A stretch of 64,000 bases of DNA, taken from positions 58,795 to 122,794 of the forward strand of contig JAQUOV010000007.1 of NCBI GenBank assembly GCA_028716965.1, read 5' to 3'. Origin of the DNA: Candidatus Omnitrophota bacterium. GTDB lineage: Bacteria; Omnitrophota; Gorgyraeia; Gygaellales; Profunditerraquicolaceae. This document shows, one piece after another, positions 6,759 through 63,979 of the stretch (the first letter of the stretch is position 1; each line of letters opens with the position of its first letter). The notes under the pieces were generated by a model that worked only from the letters and a program-made list of their open reading frames with translations, ran no database searches and was not told the origin of the DNA. The position numbers and the translations under genes are program-made.

Positions 6759-6875
6759 TTAAGGAATCCGTTGTATCTTACGCTTCAAAACCCTGCCTTT
6801 TAGGGAGCAGGCCTGGCAAAGAGCGATGAGTATCCCGCCACGGATCTATCCTTGAGAATTCAGTTTTGTCCAAAA

Positions 6876-6912
6876 AGAATCCCGACAATTTCTGTTGGGA
6901 TTTCTTTTTGTA
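6876..6912 (+). terminator. Putative intrinsic terminator
   Basis: Hairpin gaatcccgacaatttctgttgggatttc followed by a T-run. Confidence 0.4.
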
Positions 6913-13780: not shown

Positions 13781-13916
13781 TGCTGATTCTCACCTCCTTA
13801 AAAAAAATCAGAAAAAAATGTCGAATCTTAGCAGATTCGACTTCTTTTCTGATTTTGCGGTTTGTACCTGAAACTAAACAATTTCTTTGCTTCTCCTCTG
13901 AACTTAGCTTACTTTT

Positions 13917-15552: not shown

Positions 15553-15748
15553 TGCTGATTCTCACCTCCTTAAAAAAAATCAGAAAAAAATGTCGAATCT
15601 TAGCAGATTCGACTTCTTTTCTGATTTTGCGGTTTGTACCTGAAACTAAACAATTTCTTTGCTTCTCCTCTGAACTTAGCTTACTTTTTAAATATAACAT
15701 GAATTGAACGTTTGTCAACCTTTTTTATGTATAAAGTTAAGCGGGCAA

Positions 15749-26786: not shown

Positions 26787-26940
26787 GGATTTCGCCGGAT
26801 CAAAACTTATGGTGCTCTTATCCTTGATTTCACTATTGTTCAATCAAGGATTTCGCCGGATCAAAACTTATGGTGCTCTTATCCTTGATTTCACTATTGT
26901 TCAATCAAGGATTTCGCCGGATCAAAACTTATGGTGCTCA
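26787..26940. repeat. Tandem repeat, 61-bp unit x about 2.5, immediately upstream of tRNA-Met
   Basis: The unit ggatttcgccggatcaaaacttatggtgctcttatccttgatttcactattgttcaatcaa recurs at 26787, 26848 and 26909. Each unit holds the 8-bp inverted repeat ccttgatt...aatcaagg. Confidence 0.8.
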
Positions 26941-26944
26941 ATTT

Positions 26945-27017
26945 CGCGGGGTGGAGCAGCCTGGTAGCTCGCAAGGCTCATAACCTTGAGGTCATGCGTT
27001 CAAATCGCATCCCCGCA
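26945..27017 (+). tRNA. tRNA-Met (anticodon CAT), initiator-like (C1:A72 mismatch, close to E. coli tRNA-fMet)
   Basis: CGCGGGGTGGAGCAGCCTGGTAGCTCG...CTCATAA...TTCAAATC...CCCCGCA, with acceptor end C1/A72. Confidence 0.85.
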
Positions 27018-27021
27018 ATTA

Positions 27022-57322: not shown

Positions 57323-57745
57323 GTGAAAAAGTCTTTTTACCGGTTTATCGAGCATACCGCAGATATCGGCATCAGGGTTAAATCATTCTCCCTGGCAGGG
57401 TTATTCAAAAATGCCGGCCTTGCTATAACCGACATCTCATTCCAGAAACAAACATCCCAATATCCCGGAAAGCATAATATCGTAATCAGGCAAAAAGCGG
57501 CTAACGTTGAGGAGCTTTTTATTAACTGGCTGAATGAGTTATTGTCAGTATCCGCAGTAGAATCCCTTGTTTTTGAAGATATCCAGGTAACCCAGATCAA
57601 TGAAAACTATGTGGATGCAGTTGCCGTAGGAAGAGACATGAGAGATTATAAGCTCAATACAGAAATCAAGGCTGCTACTTACCATCAGCTAAAGGTTAAA
57701 AAAACCGGCCTCATCTGGCAGGCAGAGGTAATTCTTGACGTATAA
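57323..57745 (+). CDS. Archease (RtcB activator)
   Basis: FIEHTADIGIRV N-terminal signature. 140 aa. Directly upstream of rtcB. Confidence 0.7.
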   Translation: MKKSFYRFIEHTADIGIRVKSFSLAGLFKNAGLAITDISFQKQTSQYPGKHNIVIRQKAANVEELFINWLNELLSVSAVESLVFEDIQVTQINENYVDAVAVGRDMRDYKLNTEIKAATYHQLKVKKTGLIWQAEVILDV

Positions 57746-59200
57746 ATGGACGCTCATATCCCGTTAGAGAAGATTGATGATTATCGCTGGCGTATCCCCC
57801 GCAGCTATAAGCCGGGAATGCGTGTGCCCGGTTTAATTTATGCCGACGAGAAACTGCTGAAGGATATTTACCGGGACAAGGCCCTGGAGCAGGTGGCTAA
57901 TGTGGCTTTCCTTCCGGGGATAGTGAATAATTCTTTGGCCATGCCTGATATCCACTGGGGTTATGGTTTTCCTATAGGCGGAGTGGCGGCGACTGATATT
58001 GAGGAGGGAGGGGTTATTTCTCCCGGAGGGGTAGGGTTTGATATAAATTGCGGGGTAAGATTATTAAAAACTAATCTGGAATATGATGATGTTAAAGATA
58101 AGATCAAAGATTTAATTTACCGTTTATTCTCCGATATCCCTTCCGGAGTAGGCTCTGAAGGGGATATAAAGGTAAGCCCAAAAGAAGAGGAAGAGATATT
58201 ATTGAAAGGCAGCCGCTGGGCAGTGGAAAAAGGGTTTGGGACGGATGACGACCTTGAATGTACCGAAGAAAATGGCGCTATGCAGGGCGCAGACCCGCAG
58301 GCAGTTTCAGAGCGTGCTTTAAAGCGCGGCAGGGCCCAATCAGGCACCTTAGGTTCCGGAAATCATTTTTTAGAAGTCCAGGTTATTGACCAGCTTTATG
58401 ACCGGGATGCTTCGGATGCCCTGGAGCTTAATTTAGGCCAGGTAATGGTAGCGATTCATTCAGGTTCGCGAGGTTTGGGTTATCAAATTTGTGAAGATTA
58501 TTCTCGCGGTATGATCGCAAGCTTGGCGAAATATGGCATAAATGTACCTGACCGGCAGCTTGCCTGCGCTCCGGTTAGTTCCGCTGAAGGCAAGGCATAT
58601 CTATCGGCGATGAAATGCGCGGCAAATTATGCCTGGTGCAACCGGCAGTGTTTGATGTATTTAACGCGTAAAGTATTTGAGAAGTTTTTTGGGGTTTCCT
58701 GGCAGAAACTGGGGATGTTCCTGATTTATGATGTGGCGCATAACATTGCAAAGATTGAAAAACATAATGTTGCAGGCAAGGAAAAGGAACTCTGCGTGCA
58801 TCGTAAAGGCGCCACGCGGGCTTTTCCCCCCGGGCATCCGGCTTTGCCTGAAAAATATAAGAAGATCGGCCAGCCTGTAATTATTCCCGGGGACATGGGC
58901 AGGAACTCGTATCTTTTGACCGGCACGGAAAAAGCAATGCAGGAAACCTTTGGCAGCGCCTGCCATGGCGCCGGGCGCCTGAAGTCCCGTACCTCTGCCC
59001 TTAGATCCATCAATCCAGATATGTTATTGAAAGAATTGGGATCTAAAGGTATAATAGTGAAAGCCTCCGGACGCAATACGCTGGCAGAAGAGGCGCCTTC
59101 TGCCTATAAAGACGTAAATGATGTGGTGGATGTGGTGCATAATGCCGGAATATCAAAACGCGTCTGCAGGATGCGTCCGCTGGGAGTAATTAAAGGTTGA
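57746..59200 (+). CDS. rtcB: RNA-splicing ligase RtcB
   Basis: Conserved GSGNHF, HSGSRG and CHGAGR motifs. 484 aa. Confidence 0.88.
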   Translation: MDAHIPLEKIDDYRWRIPRSYKPGMRVPGLIYADEKLLKDIYRDKALEQVANVAFLPGIVNNSLAMPDIHWGYGFPIGGVAATDIEEGGVISPGGVGFDINCGVRLLKTNLEYDDVKDKIKDLIYRLFSDIPSGVGSEGDIKVSPKEEEEILLKGSRWAVEKGFGTDDDLECTEENGAMQGADPQAVSERALKRGRAQSGTLGSGNHFLEVQVIDQLYDRDASDALELNLGQVMVAIHSGSRGLGYQICEDYSRGMIASLAKYGINVPDRQLACAPVSSAEGKAYLSAMKCAANYAWCNRQCLMYLTRKVFEKFFGVSWQKLGMFLIYDVAHNIAKIEKHNVAGKEKELCVHRKGATRAFPPGHPALPEKYKKIGQPVIIPGDMGRNSYLLTGTEKAMQETFGSACHGAGRLKSRTSALRSINPDMLLKELGSKGIIVKASGRNTLAEEAPSAYKDVNDVVDVVHNAGISKRVCRMRPLGVIKG

Positions 59201-59282: not shown

Positions 59283-60563
59283 TTGCCAAGAATGTTAGAT
59301 ATAAAATTCATCCGGGAAAATCAAGATTTGGTAAAGCAGGCGATAAAGAACCGGGCTTTGAAGATTGATATTGATGCCGTTGTTAAGATTGATGACGGAC
59401 GCCGTAGATCTTTGAGCGAATTTGAGGAGTTATCGGCCAAGCGCAATAAAGCCAATGATGAAATAAGCGTTCTTTTGAAAGAAAAAAAAGACGCTAAAGC
59501 CAAAATATCCTCAATGAAGGATATTTCAAAACGCATTAGTGAGCTTGAGTCGCAGATAAAAGATCAGGAAGCAGAGCTGAATAAGCTGCTTTTGAATATT
59601 CCCAACCTGCCGCATGCCTCTTTGCCGGTAGGGGATGCTTCTTGTAACAAGGTCGTGCGTAGTTGGGCTGAGCCGAAAAAGTTTAATTTTAAGCCGCTTA
59701 GCCATATTGAGCTTTGCCAGAACCTGGATATCGTGGATTTTAACCGGGCGACCAAGATTAGCGGCTCAAATTTCATCCTTTTCAAGGGCTGGGGCGCGAA
59801 ACTTGAGCGGGCTTTGATTAATTTCATGCTGGACCTGCATACGCGCAAGCATGGTTATACCGAGATCTTCCCGCCGTTTTTGGTTAACCGCGCTTCTATG
59901 CTTGGCACCGGCCAGCTGCCCAAGCTGGAAGAGGATATGTATAAACTTAAAGACGATGACCTTTTCCTTATTCCTACGGCAGAAGTCCCGCTTACTAATA
60001 TCTTCCGCGATGAAATCATAGATGAGGATAAGCTGCCTGTTTATTATACCGCTTATACGGCATGTTTCAGAAGAGAGGCAGGTTCGTATGGCAAGGACAC
60101 CAAAGGCTTAATCCGCGTGCATGAATTTGATAAGGTAGAGATGGTAAAGTTCGTCAGGCCCGAAGATTCTTATGATGAACTGGAAAAACTGGTAGCCGAC
60201 GCCGAAGAGGTGCTGCAGCTTTTAGAGTTACCGTACCGGGTAGTGATGCTTTCCACGCAAGATATAAGTTTTGCCGCCAGTAAATGTTATGACCTTGAGG
60301 CTTATACCGCCGGAGTAGATAAATGGCTTGAGGTCTCCAGCTGCAGTAATTTTGAAAGTTTCCAGGCCCGCCGGGCAAATATCAGGATGCGCCGGGGAGA
60401 AAGCAAGAAAGTAGAATTCTTGCACACCCTCAATGGCTCGGGTATAGCTTTGGCGCGCACGGTGGTAGCGATATTGGAAAATTACCAACAGCAGGACGGT
60501 TCAGTATTAATCCCTAAAATACTACAACCATATTTAAATGGCCAGGAAAGAATTACCCGATAA
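59283..60563 (+). CDS. serS: Seryl-tRNA synthetase
   Basis: N-terminal coiled-coil arm. Class II core with FRREAGS motif 2 and the GSGIA...R motif 3 region. Confidence 0.9.
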
Positions 60564-61242
60564 GAAATTACTTAAAGATACCCCTTTGCCAAAAGAGCCT
60601 GCCGGCATTTCCGGAGACTTTTCCAGTAAGTTCTCCGGTTTATCCAGTAAGGCCTTCGGGATAATTAAATTCATTTTAGGCATATTGCTCCTGCCGTTTG
60701 TTTTCTCAACGACAGTATCTTTCCTTAATGAATTTGGCCTGGTGGACAAAAGTTTACAAGCAGTATTCTGGAAGGGGGTAGTTTGTTTCCTGGCGGTCTA
60801 CCTGTTTATCTGGGAGCCGGCGGCAATCTACAACCGAGGGCATAAACTGCTTGAGATCGTCTTTAGCTTCTTTAAGCCGATGGTTAATGTTGCGCCGTTC
60901 CTCCTGCCAATATACACTATATTGGTATTTATTCTCTACGGGTTGTTATCGCTGGGGATTAAATCCTCCTGGTTGATTGAATATGCGCTTTTTCTTATCG
61001 GTTTCAGCGCTGTCCTGCACTTGGTATTTTCAGCCAAGGCCATCCGTACAAAAAAAGGGGATTTCCTGAAAGGAAATTACATATTCGGGTTTTCGTTTAT
61101 TTTTATCCTGAATCTTACGCTGCTTACCTGCGGTTTCAGCCTGATGTTTAAGGAGTTTTCATTCGTTAATTTCTGTAATATTTCTTTTGCCGTGGCCGGT
61201 AATATATTTTCCGCTGTTTTTAGGCAGCTTTTCTTGTTTTGA
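60538..61242 (+). CDS. Hypothetical polytopic membrane protein
   Basis: 234 aa, about 5 to 6 hydrophobic helices. Overlaps the serS 3' end by 26 nt. Confidence 0.45.
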
Positions 61243-61249
61243 CCTTTCA

Positions 61250-61297
61250 GGTGGGGGGTGTCAGAGTGGTTGAAAGTAACAGTCTTGATCCCGCACC
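61250..61297 (+). pseudogene. Degenerate tRNA-Ser-like 5' half (acceptor, D-arm-like and a CTTGA anticodon-loop-like segment)
   Basis: GGTGGGGGGTGTCAGAGTGGTTGAAAGTAACAGTCTTGATCCCGCACC runs parallel to the intact tRNA-Ser GGAGGAGTGGCAGAGTGGTCTAATGCGGCGGTCTTGAAAACCG, but its anticodon stem does not close. Confidence 0.4.
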
Positions 61298-61315
61298 TTT
61301 TGTAAATCATCTTAT

Positions 61316-61402
61316 GGAGGAGTGGCAGAGTGGTCTAATGCGGCGGTCTTGAAAACCGTTGAAGCCGTAAGGTTTCCGAGGGTTCGAATCCTTCCTCCTC
61401 CG
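61316..61402 (+). tRNA. tRNA-Ser (anticodon TGA), class II long variable arm
   Basis: Acceptor GGAGGAG/CTCCTCC, anticodon arm GCGGT-CTTGAAA-ACCGT, long variable arm, T-arm GAGGGTTCGAATCCTTC. Confidence 0.85.
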
Positions 61403-61426
61403 AAATAAAACGGTATTATTTAAAAA

Positions 61427-61453
61427 GGTGCGGGACGAATCCCAGCCCCACCG
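61427..61453 (+). pseudogene. Degenerate tRNA-like 3' fragment pairing with 61250..61297
   Basis: GGTGCGGGACGAATCCCAGCCCCACCG. The segment CCCCACC pairs with the 5' GGTGGGG, and GGTGCGGGA pairs with TCCCGCACC at 61289..61297. T-loop-like CGAATCC. Confidence 0.35.
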
Positions 61454-61490
61454 TTAATTGCATTGGAAGTTAAGCAGTAAAAAGGCCCAT

Positions 61491-62294
61491 ATGAGCGCAG
61501 CCATTTATTATTTCTCGGCTACCGGTAATTCCCTGATGGTAGCAAGGGATATAGCGTCTGAATTGAAAGAAGCTAAACTTCTGCCTATAACCAAGGCAGC
61601 AGGATCAGGCAGTATTGAGCAGGCTGATATAGTGGGGATTGTTTTTCCGGTGTATATGTTCGGCCTGCCGCTTATTGTGGCGGAGTTTTTGAAAAGACTT
61701 AAAGCTAAGCCCGATGCCTATGTTTTTTCGGTAGCTACGCTTGGCGGATTGCCGGGAAGGGCGCATAGTTTAATCAGGAGTATCCTGGGCGCGCGCGGGA
61801 TTGAGCTGGCATGCGGATTTTCAGTGATGATGCCGGGAAACTATACACCGTTATACGGGGCTATCCCTAAAGAGCAGCAGGAGGGGATGTTTAAGAAGGA
61901 AAAAATAAAGGTTAAGGAGATCGCGCGTTTGGTGACGGAGCGTAAACGCGGCATCTTTGAAGAGAAGCCTTTTCTTGCTAATTTCTTGCTTTATGTCTTG
62001 CTGTATAGGGCAGGTTCCAAACAGATCCCCGGTTCAGCCAAAGGATTTTGGATTACGGATGCCTGTACTAAATGCGGCAGGTGCGCTAAGGTTTGCCCCG
62101 TAGCCAACATAGAGATGAAGGATGGCAGGCCTTTTTGGCTTGCCCACTGCCAGCATTGCATGGCATGTTTGCAGTGGTGCCCCGTAGAAGCTATCCAGTA
62201 TAAGAAGTCCACCCTGGGCAGGGAGCGTTACCGCCATCCCGGTATAAGCGAAGAAGATATCGGCGGGCAGAGGGTTGATCCTCTGAAAATATAA
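61491..62294 (+). CDS. Flavodoxin-like domain protein with C-terminal 2x[4Fe-4S] ferredoxin domain
   Basis: AIYYFSATGNS flavodoxin-like N-terminus. CTKCGRCAKVCP and CQHCMACLQWCP motifs. Start taken at MSAAIYY; the ORF begins at 61458. Confidence 0.6.
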   Translation: MSAAIYYFSATGNSLMVARDIASELKEAKLLPITKAAGSGSIEQADIVGIVFPVYMFGLPLIVAEFLKRLKAKPDAYVFSVATLGGLPGRAHSLIRSILGARGIELACGFSVMMPGNYTPLYGAIPKEQQEGMFKKEKIKVKEIARLVTERKRGIFEEKPFLANFLLYVLLYRAGSKQIPGSAKGFWITDACTKCGRCAKVCPVANIEMKDGRPFWLAHCQHCMACLQWCPVEAIQYKKSTLGRERYRHPGISEEDIGGQRVDPLKI

Positions 62295-62305
62295 ATTGCG
62301 GTCCT

Positions 62306-62393
62306 GGAGAGTTGGCAGAGCTGGTTGAATGCGGCGGTCTCGAAAACCGTTGTCGTCGTAAGATGACCGGAGGTTCGAATCCTCCACTCTCCG
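62306..62393 (+). tRNA. tRNA-Ser (anticodon CGA)
   Basis: Acceptor GGAGAGT/ACTCTCC, anticodon arm GCGGT-CTCGAAA-ACCGT, long variable arm, T-arm GGAGGTTCGAATCCTCC. Confidence 0.85.
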
Positions 62394-62446
62394 TTGAAGT
62401 TTTGCAAACAGCCGATCTTCAGCGGATGCTGTTCCGTGTAAAAATT

Positions 62447-63979
62447 TTATAATAATTTTTGGAGAGGTGCCGGAGTGGTCGAACGGGCGTGTCTGGAGAA
62501 CACGTGAGTCGCAAGGCTCCCAGGGTTCGAATCCCTGCCTCTCCGCCAGTTAGGATAGGGTGCTGCTTCAAAGAGAGGACGGAAGGTACCTTCCGTCGGA
62601 AAATTGAGGCGGCGCTCTTTTAAAATAAAGTTCGAACCAATCTTTTTCAGAAATTCTTTCTGGGATTCTAAATTTCCCTCTTCAATCGCGCAACGGGCTC
62701 TATTCAAAGAGGTTACGAATTCTTTCGCCGGTTCGAACCGATTAGAGCCTACCGCAGCAAAATCCTTTGCAGATTCCTGTAATTTCTTCTTTTCGTTGAT
62801 AAAACTTTCCTTCTTAGCCTGATATTCTTCAAGAGTCAAAGACTCAGCCAGGTACATATCAATTAGCTTGCTTATCTTATCGTCAATCGCCTTAATCTTA
62901 GCGTCCAGATTTTGCTGCGGGAGACCTGATGATTGGACAGCCTCATTCTTGTCCTTAGCAAGCTCATTCAAAATCTTCTCTGTCCAATCATCAGACAAAG
63001 AAACTTTTTGAATGATAGCCCTGACCTGCGCGGCAAGCTCTTCCTCGCGGATATACTTTTGGGAGCAGCGGACTAACCTTTTGGTGCAATGGTAGTAAGT
63101 ATGCCCCTTTTGAACTTCTGCCGTAATTGACCTTCCGCACTCACCGCAGCGCATTAACCCTCTAAGAATAAATCTCTCTTTTTGCGGCTCCTTGTGTTTG
63201 CCGCGCATTCGCATAACTTCTTGGCATCTATCAAAAAGTTTCTTTGTGATAATAGGCTGATGAGTGCCTTCATAGACTTCGCCTTTATAGCGGAATACGC
63301 CGTAATAAAGAGGGTTTTTGAGCATCGTTTGATATTGGCTTATGCTTAGAGGCTTATCTTTTCTACCAGCCATGCCGAGAGGATTTATTTTGTTTCGCAC
63401 CTCTTCTAGTGAATATTCGCCACTAGAGTAAAGCTCAAAAACCCTCTTTATGAAAGGAGCTTTGCCCTCATCAATTATAATCGTGCGTGTCTTGCGGTCG
63501 TTAAGGTAACCGATGGGCGCCCACTGCGGCCAGATTCCTTTGCTTAACTTCAACCTTATCCCTCTGCGTATGTTTTCAGATAAGGCATCTATATAATACT
63601 TGCTCTGGCCGAATACGATAGAGAGCATAAACTTGCCTTGAGCGTTGTTATCAAAGCGTAACGTTGGGAAGCGCAGGTCCTGAATCACCTTTTGATCTAC
63701 GAGGTAAATTATCCGGCCGCCATCAACAGAGTTTCTCGCTAATCTATCGGGATGCCAGGCAAGGATGCCGTCCGCAAGTCCACGCTCAATAGCAAGAATC
63801 ATATCATTGAAGAGTGGGCGCCCGGGCTTCTTGGCGGTCTTGGCTTCGATAATCTCCTTAAGAACAAGAATATTCTCTCGTTGGGCGTATTCTCTTAATT
63901 CCTTAAGCTGTGCTTCGATAGAGAGAACTTGTCTATCCTCGTCATCTGTGGACTTGCGGGCATAAATAAAGTATCTCAT
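62447..63979 (-). CDS. Large serine recombinase (phage-integrase type: resolvase catalytic domain, recombinase domain, zinc ribbon and coiled coil)
   Basis: N-terminus MRYFIYARKSTDDEDRQVLSIEAQ carries the catalytic-Ser motif. A CxxC...C zinc ribbon sits in the middle (RCGECG...YYHC). RBS aaaggag at 63985. The last roughly 35 codons run antisense through tRNA-Ser(GGA). Confidence 0.85.
   Translation of the reverse strand: MRYFIYARKSTDDEDRQVLSIEAQLKELREYAQRENILVLKEIIEAKTAKKPGRPLFNDMILAIERGLADGILAWHPDRLARNSVDGGRIIYLVDQKVIQDLRFPTLRFDNNAQGKFMLSIVFGQSKYYIDALSENIRRGIRLKLSKGIWPQWAPIGYLNDRKTRTIIIDEGKAPFIKRVFELYSSGEYSLEEVRNKINPLGMAGRKDKPLSISQYQTMLKNPLYYGVFRYKGEVYEGTHQPIITKKLFDRCQEVMRMRGKHKEPQKERFILRGLMRCGECGRSITAEVQKGHTYYHCTKRLVRCSQKYIREEELAAQVRAIIQKVSLSDDWTEKILNELAKDKNEAVQSSGLPQQNLDAKIKAIDDKISKLIDMYLAESLTLEEYQAKKESFINEKKKLQESAKDFAAVGSNRFEPAKEFVTSLNRARCAIEEGNLESQKEFLKKIGSNFILKERRLNFPTEGTFRPLFEAAPYPNWRRGRDSNPGSLATHVFSRHARSTTPAPLQKLL
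62461..62548 (+). tRNA. tRNA-Ser (anticodon GGA) with encoded CCA
   Basis: Acceptor GGAGAGG/CCTCTCC, anticodon arm CGTGT-CTGGAGA-ACACG, long variable arm, T-arm CAGGGTTCGAATCCCTG, then GCCA. Confidence 0.85.

Follow-up and report, generated by a model that had tools for sequence, protein, structure and literature searches.

The window, a 64,000-nt stretch of a Candidatus Omnitrophota contig, contains at 61250–61453 a complete tRNA-Ser(UGA) gene that is enclosed by an inverted repeat and, outside the repeat, by two pieces of DNA resembling the start and the end of a further tRNA-Ser. The features described at this locus all lie on the plus strand. On the 5' side, GGTGGGG (61250–61256), GTCAGAGTGGTTGAAAG (61260–61276) and CTTGA (61284–61288) were found, and on the 3' side GGTGCGGGA (61427–61435), GGGACGAATCCC (61432–61443), CCCCACC (61446–61452) and a final G (61453), each exactly where the first-pass annotation of this DNA had placed it. 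GGTGGGG and CCCCACC form an outer pairing of 7 bp.

Between the two pieces lies a cassette of 147 bp (61289–61435) without an open reading frame (ORF). Its ends are the arms of the inverted repeat, TCCCGCACCTTTT on the left (61289–61301) and AAAAGGTGCGGGA on the right (61423–61435), which are 100% complementary over 13 nt; the pairing had already been recorded as perfect, with a length of 9 nt that proved too short. The 121 bp between the repeats hold, as had been recognised, a complete and canonical tRNA-Ser(TGA) with A/T-rich flanks (ARAGORN, 61315–61403; Rfam tRNA family, 61316–61402, 58 bits). Its acceptor strands are GGAGGAG/CTCCTCC, a form termed type B here. The two spacers, earlier put at about 20 nt each, measure 14 nt on the left (61302–61315) and 20 nt on the right (61403–61422), the latter length being the same in the related loci L006 and L036. 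Of 145 tRNA genes in the window and related loci, just two are enclosed by an inverted repeat of at least 12 nt: the type B gene described here and its counterpart in L006.

The composite is bounded upstream by a conserved membrane-protein gene assigned to no Pfam family (60538–61242), which served for finding orthologous loci, and downstream by a gene for a flavodoxin-like/4Fe-4S (Fer4) protein (61491–62294), which also follows an intact tRNA gene in L047–L049 and L057. With the membrane-protein gene as query, 40 Omnitrophota genome loci were retrieved, together with 19 further contigs from a protein database; related loci and contigs are labelled L001–L060. Nearly all of the retrieved loci share the order archease–RtcB–SerS–membrane protein–tRNA-Ser(UGA), and the tRNA gene usually lies 3–30 nt past the membrane-protein gene, with longer, insertion-filled gaps at several loci. 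At most loci it is either of type A, which reads GGTGGGGTGGCTGAG..GTCTTGAAAAC....GGTTCGAATCCCAGCCCCACCG and has the acceptor strands GGTGGGG/CCCCACC, or of type A', a variant with the T stem CAGAG/CTCTG.

A search profile made from 17 distinct intact type A genes of relatives matched the window at 61255–61288 (model positions 4–37, E = 1.5e-4 for the whole 64 kb) and, collinear with this match, at 61433–61453 (model positions 67–87, E = 0.12). The 3' piece (61436–61453) is identical at 18/18 positions to the type A genes of L014, L018, L020–L022, L024, L026, L031, L040, L053 and L056. Between the membrane-protein stop codon and the 5' piece (61250–61288) there are 7 nt, and L044, L045, L047 and L057 have the start of their intact gene exactly at this point; between the 3' piece and the Fer4 ORF there are 37 nt, compared with 41 nt in L047 and L057, which share the downstream gene. 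As a test of relic status we looked for homology together with an orthologous position relative to both flanking genes, and the outer pieces show both. The first-pass annotation had reasoned that chance resemblance would be betrayed by relatives with the same flanks and no recognisable outer halves; the outer gene is instead intact in these relatives. General-purpose searches do not pick up the outer pieces. ARAGORN in its standard, intron and relaxed pseudogene modes, applied to the region and to three joined versions of it, called only the inner tRNA, so that the intron and pseudogene check proposed earlier failed to return the outer pieces as tRNA; Rfam at E ≤ 10 gave no match for them in the region, and Rfam at gathering thresholds on five related loci gave only tRNAs and chance matches.

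The 5' relic retains the acceptor 5' strand, the D arm, the 5' strand of the anticodon stem and the anticodon loop as far as CTTGA. It is accumulating mutations: GG has been inserted after the acceptor strand and the D stem is destroyed. The 3' relic retains the T loop from C56, the 3' strand of the T stem (CCCAG), the acceptor 3' strand CCCCACC and the discriminator G. The left junction of the cassette thus falls after CTTGA in the anticodon loop and the right junction before CGAATCC in the T loop, and the relics cover tRNA positions 1–37 and 56–73 without overlap. Type A nucleotides from about 37/38 to 55 are gone, that is, the 3' strand of the anticodon stem, the variable arm and the 5' strand of the T stem. 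There is no direct repeat at the cassette junctions and no target-site duplication, the flanks reading ...CTTGA and CGAATCC..., although a secondary deletion could have erased such a duplication.

From the profile matches and the positions relative to the flanking genes we therefore consider it highly probable that the outer pieces are the original tRNA-Ser(UGA) gene of this lineage, broken in place between the anticodon and T loops, and that the middle of this resident gene was replaced by a cassette carrying a different tRNA-Ser(UGA) allele. The earlier proposal of a tRNA inserted into the anticodon and variable-arm region of an older gene is borne out by the comparative data, with the amendment that the older gene is the orthologous resident and not a paralog. 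The alternative wording, a scar of recombination at a tRNA-Ser, is compatible with this and probably describes the same event, both breakpoints lying in tRNA loops. Most simply, the relics are dead DNA that is transcribed as the leader and trailer of tRNA-B.

The type B gene probably now does the decoding at this locus, since it is canonical, is found elsewhere as a clean resident gene at the same locus (L011 and L017), and differs between the window and L006 by variable-arm pairs that have changed on both sides (columns 114/125 and 117/122). A scan of 61000–62700 for sigma-70-like promoters gave no site. It seems likely that type B is co-transcribed with the upstream genes, because intact genes start 3–12 nt past the stop codon.

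The same composite, with the same junctions and arms, is present in L006 and also in L050; the two were assembled independently, and their membrane proteins are 98.7% identical. A partial form occurs in L036 (the same as L041), which has tRNA-B, the 20-nt spacer, the right arm with one change (GCGGTA) and the type A 3' relic, and lacks the 5' relic and the left arm. A 75% relative of this locus, L056, has an intact type A gene behind the orthologous upstream flank, and we therefore take the left part to have been lost from L036. Three species-level lineages thus carry the composite (the window, L006/L050 and L036/L041), and an assembly artefact is ruled out because four assemblies from different samples agree.

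The nearest relatives of each lineage lack the composite. The nearest relatives of the window (L042–L049 and L057–L060, with 83–89% identity in the membrane protein) have an intact A' or a type C gene, and the relatives of L006 (L051–L053; 92% and 83%) have type C or an intact type A, none of them nested. In a SerS tree the window falls inside a clade of A' and C genomes, L006 in the sister clade, and L036 far off beside type A genomes. The relics are nevertheless of type A (CAGT, CCCAG) in all three lineages, even those with A' neighbours (CGGT, CTCTG). Since the relics are type A even in clades with A' members, we infer that the composite arose once and then moved laterally, into the tRNA locus only. 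A sliding-window comparison of the membrane-protein gene showed no recombination breakpoint, the nearest neighbour staying constant through the last 300 nt.

How the cassette entered can be approached from its junctions. Simple insertion does not suffice, given that the target has lost about 35 nt and shows no duplication. Judged from the anatomy of the junctions, the likeliest route, which we propose tentatively, is that DNA with palindromic ends entered a tRNA loop and then underwent a deletion between microhomologies. One path would begin in the T loop (GGGTT^CGAA), which would reproduce the right junction exactly; a microhomology deletion between CTTGAA in the anticodon loop and TTCGAA in the T loop would then remove about 35 nt to the left of the cassette, and its product would be the sequence of L006, CTTGAA followed directly by TCCCGCACC. 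The other path would begin in the anticodon loop (CTTG^AAAA), where a hairpin pair has been inserted in L008 (see below); a deletion between two GGG triplets, one in the right arm and one in the T stem, would then remove about 35 nt to the right of the cassette. The undeleted intermediates would read GGGTTCGAA joined to TCCCGCACC, or GGTGCGGGA joined to AAAACTGTT. If the cassette ends were abutted (AAAAGGTGCGGGA followed directly by TCCCGCACCTTTT) they would form a perfect palindrome of 26 bp, which would suit either transposable-element ends or an attachment site with dyad symmetry. Two other sources of the arms were tried and rejected: derivation from the variable arm, T stem or acceptor stem of type A, for which the resemblance (CCCGCACC against CCCCACC) is too weak, and IS5-like ends, whose shared octamer AAGGTGCG points the wrong way and was put down to chance.

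Once formed, the composite should be resolved by deletion, given the long, directly oriented stretches in which A and B resemble each other. Recombination between such segments would convert the nested form of the window and L006 into the L036 form (type B, right arm and type A 3' relic), and possibly then into a clean type B gene as in L011 and L017.

Several observations weigh against parts of this account. The arms and the 3' relic have changed less than neutral decay would lead one to expect, which the view of the outer pieces as pure relics leaves unexplained. Between the window and L006 they are identical at 43/44 positions (left arm 12/13 and right arm 13/13, in L050 likewise), compared with 54/75 for the 5' relic and spacers (Fisher p = 4e-4), made up of 31/40 for the 5' relic, 8/15 aligned columns for the left spacer and 15/20 for the right spacer; for tRNA-B itself the figure is 79/87. 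For the insertion step no enzyme, target-site duplication or second cassette copy was found: neither the 64-kb window nor 490 kb of related sequence contains another copy of the cassette or of its arms, apart from a stand-alone 13-bp hairpin in L020. With 39 and 18 nt, the relics would give ordinary homologous recombination little length to work on. As to lateral movement, type A might have been present already in the ancestor of the window, and the relics would then need no transfer; moreover, with only three lineages carrying the composite the claim rests on few cases.

The L020 hairpin (29–76) is perfect, reads TCCCGCACTTTCT-(22 nt)-AGAAAGTGCGGGA, and its terminal 8 nt are those of the window arms; it is intergenic, unrelated to tRNA-Ser, and lies upstream of a radical-SAM-like ORF. 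A metagenome scan with the tRNA-B 3' end, spacer and right arm returned only the L036 contig. Scans of viral contigs for the repeat pair, tRNA-B and the right junction returned nothing, and BLAST of the composite against phages and plasmids gave only generic tRNA-Ser matches to the inner gene.

The excess conservation keeps alive either a role at the RNA level or a need for the arms in movement. If the RNA is what matters, the 7-bp outer helix and the 13-bp inner helix, the latter extended in the predicted minimum-energy fold by five A-U pairs past a bulged G, would serve to process or stabilise the tRNA-B precursor. Alternatively, after excision of tRNA-B the paired leader and trailer would form a two-piece tRNA-like RNA with an acceptor stem and G73, seen by tRNA enzymes such as SerRS, in which the long helix stands where the variable arm would be. 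Besides the conservation of arms and 3' relic, which exceeds even that of tRNA-B, this would account for the retention of the GGTGGGG/CCCCACC pairing and the discriminator G in the window and L006, and of CCA in L006. It would also suit the folding predictions: the region is predicted to fold better than shuffled sequence (z = −2.87), and the predicted energy of the leader and trailer cofolded is −44.4 kcal/mol against −34.5 kcal/mol separately. The long structured precursor suggested at first reading is in this sense trivially right, in that the transcript would fold so, but nothing shows that the fold is used. A needed structure is disfavoured by the decay of the 5' relic in the window, with its GG insertion and lost D stem, and by the loss of the whole left half, left arm included, in L036. 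Covariation is absent, the arms being identical (a fold of the window–L006 alignment, in which the left arm was misaligned by one column, is for the same reason uninformative on this point); such flanking stems occur on no other of the 145 tRNAs; and the T-arm-like hairpin has just 3 bp and competes with the 13-bp helix. We thus regard an RNA function as distinctly unlikely. A terminator formed by the left arm was also considered, the leader alone pairing GGUGGGG with CCCGCACC before UUUU, and was dropped, L006 having only UUUC. The outer pieces might also be read as exons of an intron-containing or split tRNA of the archaeal kind, joined by the upstream archease–RtcB ligase. In favour of this, the anticodon loop marks the end of the 5' piece, the GC-rich DNA next to it can pair with what precedes the 3' piece, and archease–RtcB–SerS lie directly upstream; yet the same synteny is found in about 50 loci with ordinary intact genes, the joined exons would lack the 3' strand of the anticodon stem, the variable arm and the 5' strand of the T stem, ARAGORN rejects every join, and the 5' exon is decaying. 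This makes spliced exons scarcely credible.

A need for the arms in movement leads to an active, site-specific mobile unit, either a non-autonomous element with terminal inverted repeats or a miniature integrative element, which would have inserted independently in each lineage at the same two loop positions and whose arms would be conserved since an enzyme acting in trans needs them. The perfect 13-bp terminal repeats, the small size without an ORF, the conserved arms beside diverging spacers and the patchy distribution all agree with this, as do the L020 hairpin, which has the same terminal 8-mer (TCCCGCAC...GTGCGGGA) at an unrelated intergenic site, and the other loop-specific hairpin insertions in tRNA fragments of relatives. 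However, type A relics occur also where A' is the local allele, so that relics and cassette seem to move as one; a target-site duplication is lacking, and an identical deletion of about 35 nt of target would need to recur each time; and no second copy was seen in the 64-kb window, in the 490 kb of related sequence or in viral contigs. Repeated independent insertion is accordingly unlikely in our view. Perfect inverted repeats around a short segment, with a serine recombinase gene 1 kb away, also bring to mind an inverton in which the 121-bp segment would be flipped to switch tRNA-Ser(UGA) on and off. But the recombinase is of the large serine integrase type, and its element end GAGGCGGCGCTCTTTTAAAATAAAGTTCGAACC adjoins tRNA-Ser in L051 and L054/L055, which have no cassette; L006, L050 and L036 have the cassette and different downstream genes; all four assemblies show one orientation; and switching off what is apparently the only tRNA-Ser(UGA) would be lethal. 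An invertible switch is therefore very improbable. We return to the replacement of a resident type A gene by a cassette with type B as the reading of the locus.

The recombinase just mentioned is one of three neighbours that had been listed within 1.2 kb, the others being tRNA-Ser(CGA) (62305–62394) and tRNA-Ser(GGA) (62461–62548); all are there. It is a large serine recombinase (Resolvase, Recombinase and Zn_ribbon_recom domains; 62447–63979, minus strand, considered with 62549–62660) that adjoins tRNA-Ser(GGA), and its ORF runs across this tRNA gene on the other strand; the end of the window cuts the element. The element end GAGGCGGCGCTCTTTTAAAATAAAGTTCGAACCAATC follows tRNA-Ser(GGA) in L051 and the type C tRNA-Ser(TGA) in L054 and L055. 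Because the same end follows different tRNA-Ser genes, the element seems to target the ..CCTCTCCGCCA 3' end common to these tRNAs.

The retrieved loci show much variation at the position of the tRNA gene. This one syntenic position is occupied, in species whose flanking proteins are 80–90% identical, by at least five alternating alleles of tRNA-Ser(UGA): A, A', B, C and D, besides a GGAGAGG form. The genes on either side are not swapped along with them. Mosaic alleles occur in L008 and L029, which combine an A' acceptor with a B-like D and anticodon arm. The tRNA-Ser(UGA) locus is evidently a hot spot in Omnitrophota, with frequent allele turnover.

Several of these loci also contain tRNA fragments with inserted hairpins. 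In L008 (6720–7150) and L024 (7700–8100) a recurrent element consists of a tRNA 5' fragment with a pair of hairpins inserted exactly in a loop, a small GIY-YIG gene (80–81 aa) and the full tRNA. The pair is GC-rich and consists of CCCGCCAC-N5-GTGGCGGG and then TCCGCC..GGCGGA; it is inserted in the anticodon loop of tRNA-Ser in L008 and in the D loop of tRNA-Asn in L024, and the L008 pair had no match in viral contigs. A similar GIY-YIG gene directly follows a type B tRNA-Ser(TGA) in L011 (2816–3160). Tandem units of about 150 nt, in 2–4 repeats, sit between the membrane-protein gene and the real tRNA-Ser(TGA) in L027 (6640–7170), L028 (6900–7470), L030 (6680–7233) and L025 (6680–7154), each unit comprising a tRNA-Ser 5' fragment that reaches CTT in the anticodon loop, two hairpins inserted exactly in its D loop, and a 45-nt spacer. 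The units match no Rfam family. The hairpins are TCCCGTA..TACGGGA and TCCCGCCGC..GGCGGGA, and their ends TCCCG/CGGGA resemble the arms of the window repeat. Directly upstream of the intact gene of L031 lies a tRNA-Ser 5' fragment (6799–6912) that breaks off in the anticodon stem; an insertion of 51 nt with two hairpins sits exactly in its D loop, preceded by GAGCGG and followed by TTGAAAG.

Further from the composite, the archease encoded upstream of RtcB in L037 (1370–2040) and L039 (2503–3170) carries an N-terminal GIY-YIG fusion (Pfam GIY-YIG 2.8e-18, Archease 6.4e-36). The archease of the window (57323–57745, within the region 57323–59200) is unfused, and the order archease–RtcB–SerS–membrane protein–tRNA-Ser is conserved across the phylum sample. 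Two repeated structures lie near other tRNA genes of the window: two copies, 29 nt apart, of a 32-nt near-palindrome, ATCCTTGATTTCACTATTGTTCAATCAAGGAT (26820–26912), upstream of tRNA-Met (26944–27019), and an identical hairpin segment of about 50 nt, AAAATCAGAAAAAAATGTCGAATCT..., at 13804–13856 and 15576–15628, 1.77 kb apart and near tRNA-Phe (13412) and tRNA-Thr (15789).

Bacterial tRNA genes are usually viewed as stable targets, which integrating elements repair with a carried copy of the 3' end. At the locus described here an essential tRNA gene appears to have been replaced in place by a different allele, with the intermediate preserved and both relics still attached, and this would provide a route for turnover of tRNA alleles without exchange of the flanking genes. 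There is also a practical side, as the relics could be miscalled in annotation as tRNA pseudogenes or split tRNAs. A further-reaching idea, which we hold to be doubtful, is that the composite is the footprint of an undescribed selfish 'tRNA replacement cassette' with palindromic ends and no enzyme of its own. Such a cassette would enter a loop of the single-copy tRNA-Ser(UGA), kill the gene and supply its own allele; the host could then not lose it, and it would spread laterally into the same gene of other species. It would be part of a wider set of loop-targeting insertions in Omnitrophota tRNA genes, with the GIY-YIG hairpin pairs and the 150-nt tandem units, and such insertions would explain the swapping of at least five tRNA-Ser(UGA) alleles between close relatives. 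If an enzyme recognises the palindromic ends, the cassette would be a new kind of minimal mobile element whose sole cargo is the gene that it destroys.

Sublocation classes of integration sites in tRNA genes were reportedly set out by Williams in 2002. Fragments of tRNA genes beside inserted DNA are well known, and mis-annotated fragments have been reviewed (PMC9897764), so that the claim of novelty made in the first-pass annotation holds for the particular form only: our literature search turned up no bacterial tRNA gene described as lying inside the remains of the gene that it replaced. Like the scars of attachment (att) sites, the composite has partial tRNAs flanking foreign DNA, breakpoints at the classical crossover loops, and a functional tRNA that is kept. 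The usual integrating elements are, however, kilobases long, encode an integrase and duplicate one tRNA segment so that a hybrid gene is rebuilt. The insert described here has 147 bp with neither ORF nor integrase and no shared direct-repeat core; nothing is duplicated and about 35 nt of the target are missing; function comes from a complete, independent isoacceptor gene with spacers of its own; and the ends are a perfect inverted repeat.

In its size of about 150 bp, its perfect terminal inverted repeats, its noncoding nature and its patchy distribution the cassette is similar to miniature inverted-repeat transposable elements. It differs from them in having no target-site duplication and a tRNA as cargo, and in that the flanking relics appear to move along with it; a single copy was found in the 64-kb window, and none besides the known composites in 490 kb of related loci. 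In the split tRNAs of Nanoarchaeum, complementary sequences adjoin the ends of the half-genes. The likeness of the composite to archaeal split and intron-containing tRNA genes (reviewed in PMC4033280, PMC3978253) is superficial and lies in a 5' half that ends after the anticodon loop, with sequence next to it that is complementary to the stretch before the 3' piece; the organism is a bacterium, the 3' piece has 18 nt only, no full cloverleaf results and the intervening DNA is a complete tRNA gene. The replacement of tRNA alleles without exchange of flanking genes is also reminiscent of homing by free-standing GIY-YIG endonucleases such as SegB of phage T4 (PMC2330249), and small GIY-YIG genes do adjoin tRNA fragments in L008 and L024 and the tRNA-Ser of L011; no endonuclease gene lies in or next to the window cassette, and the link is circumstantial. 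Set against these systems, the composite belongs, as an unusual variant, with the known scars that inserted DNA leaves in tRNA genes.

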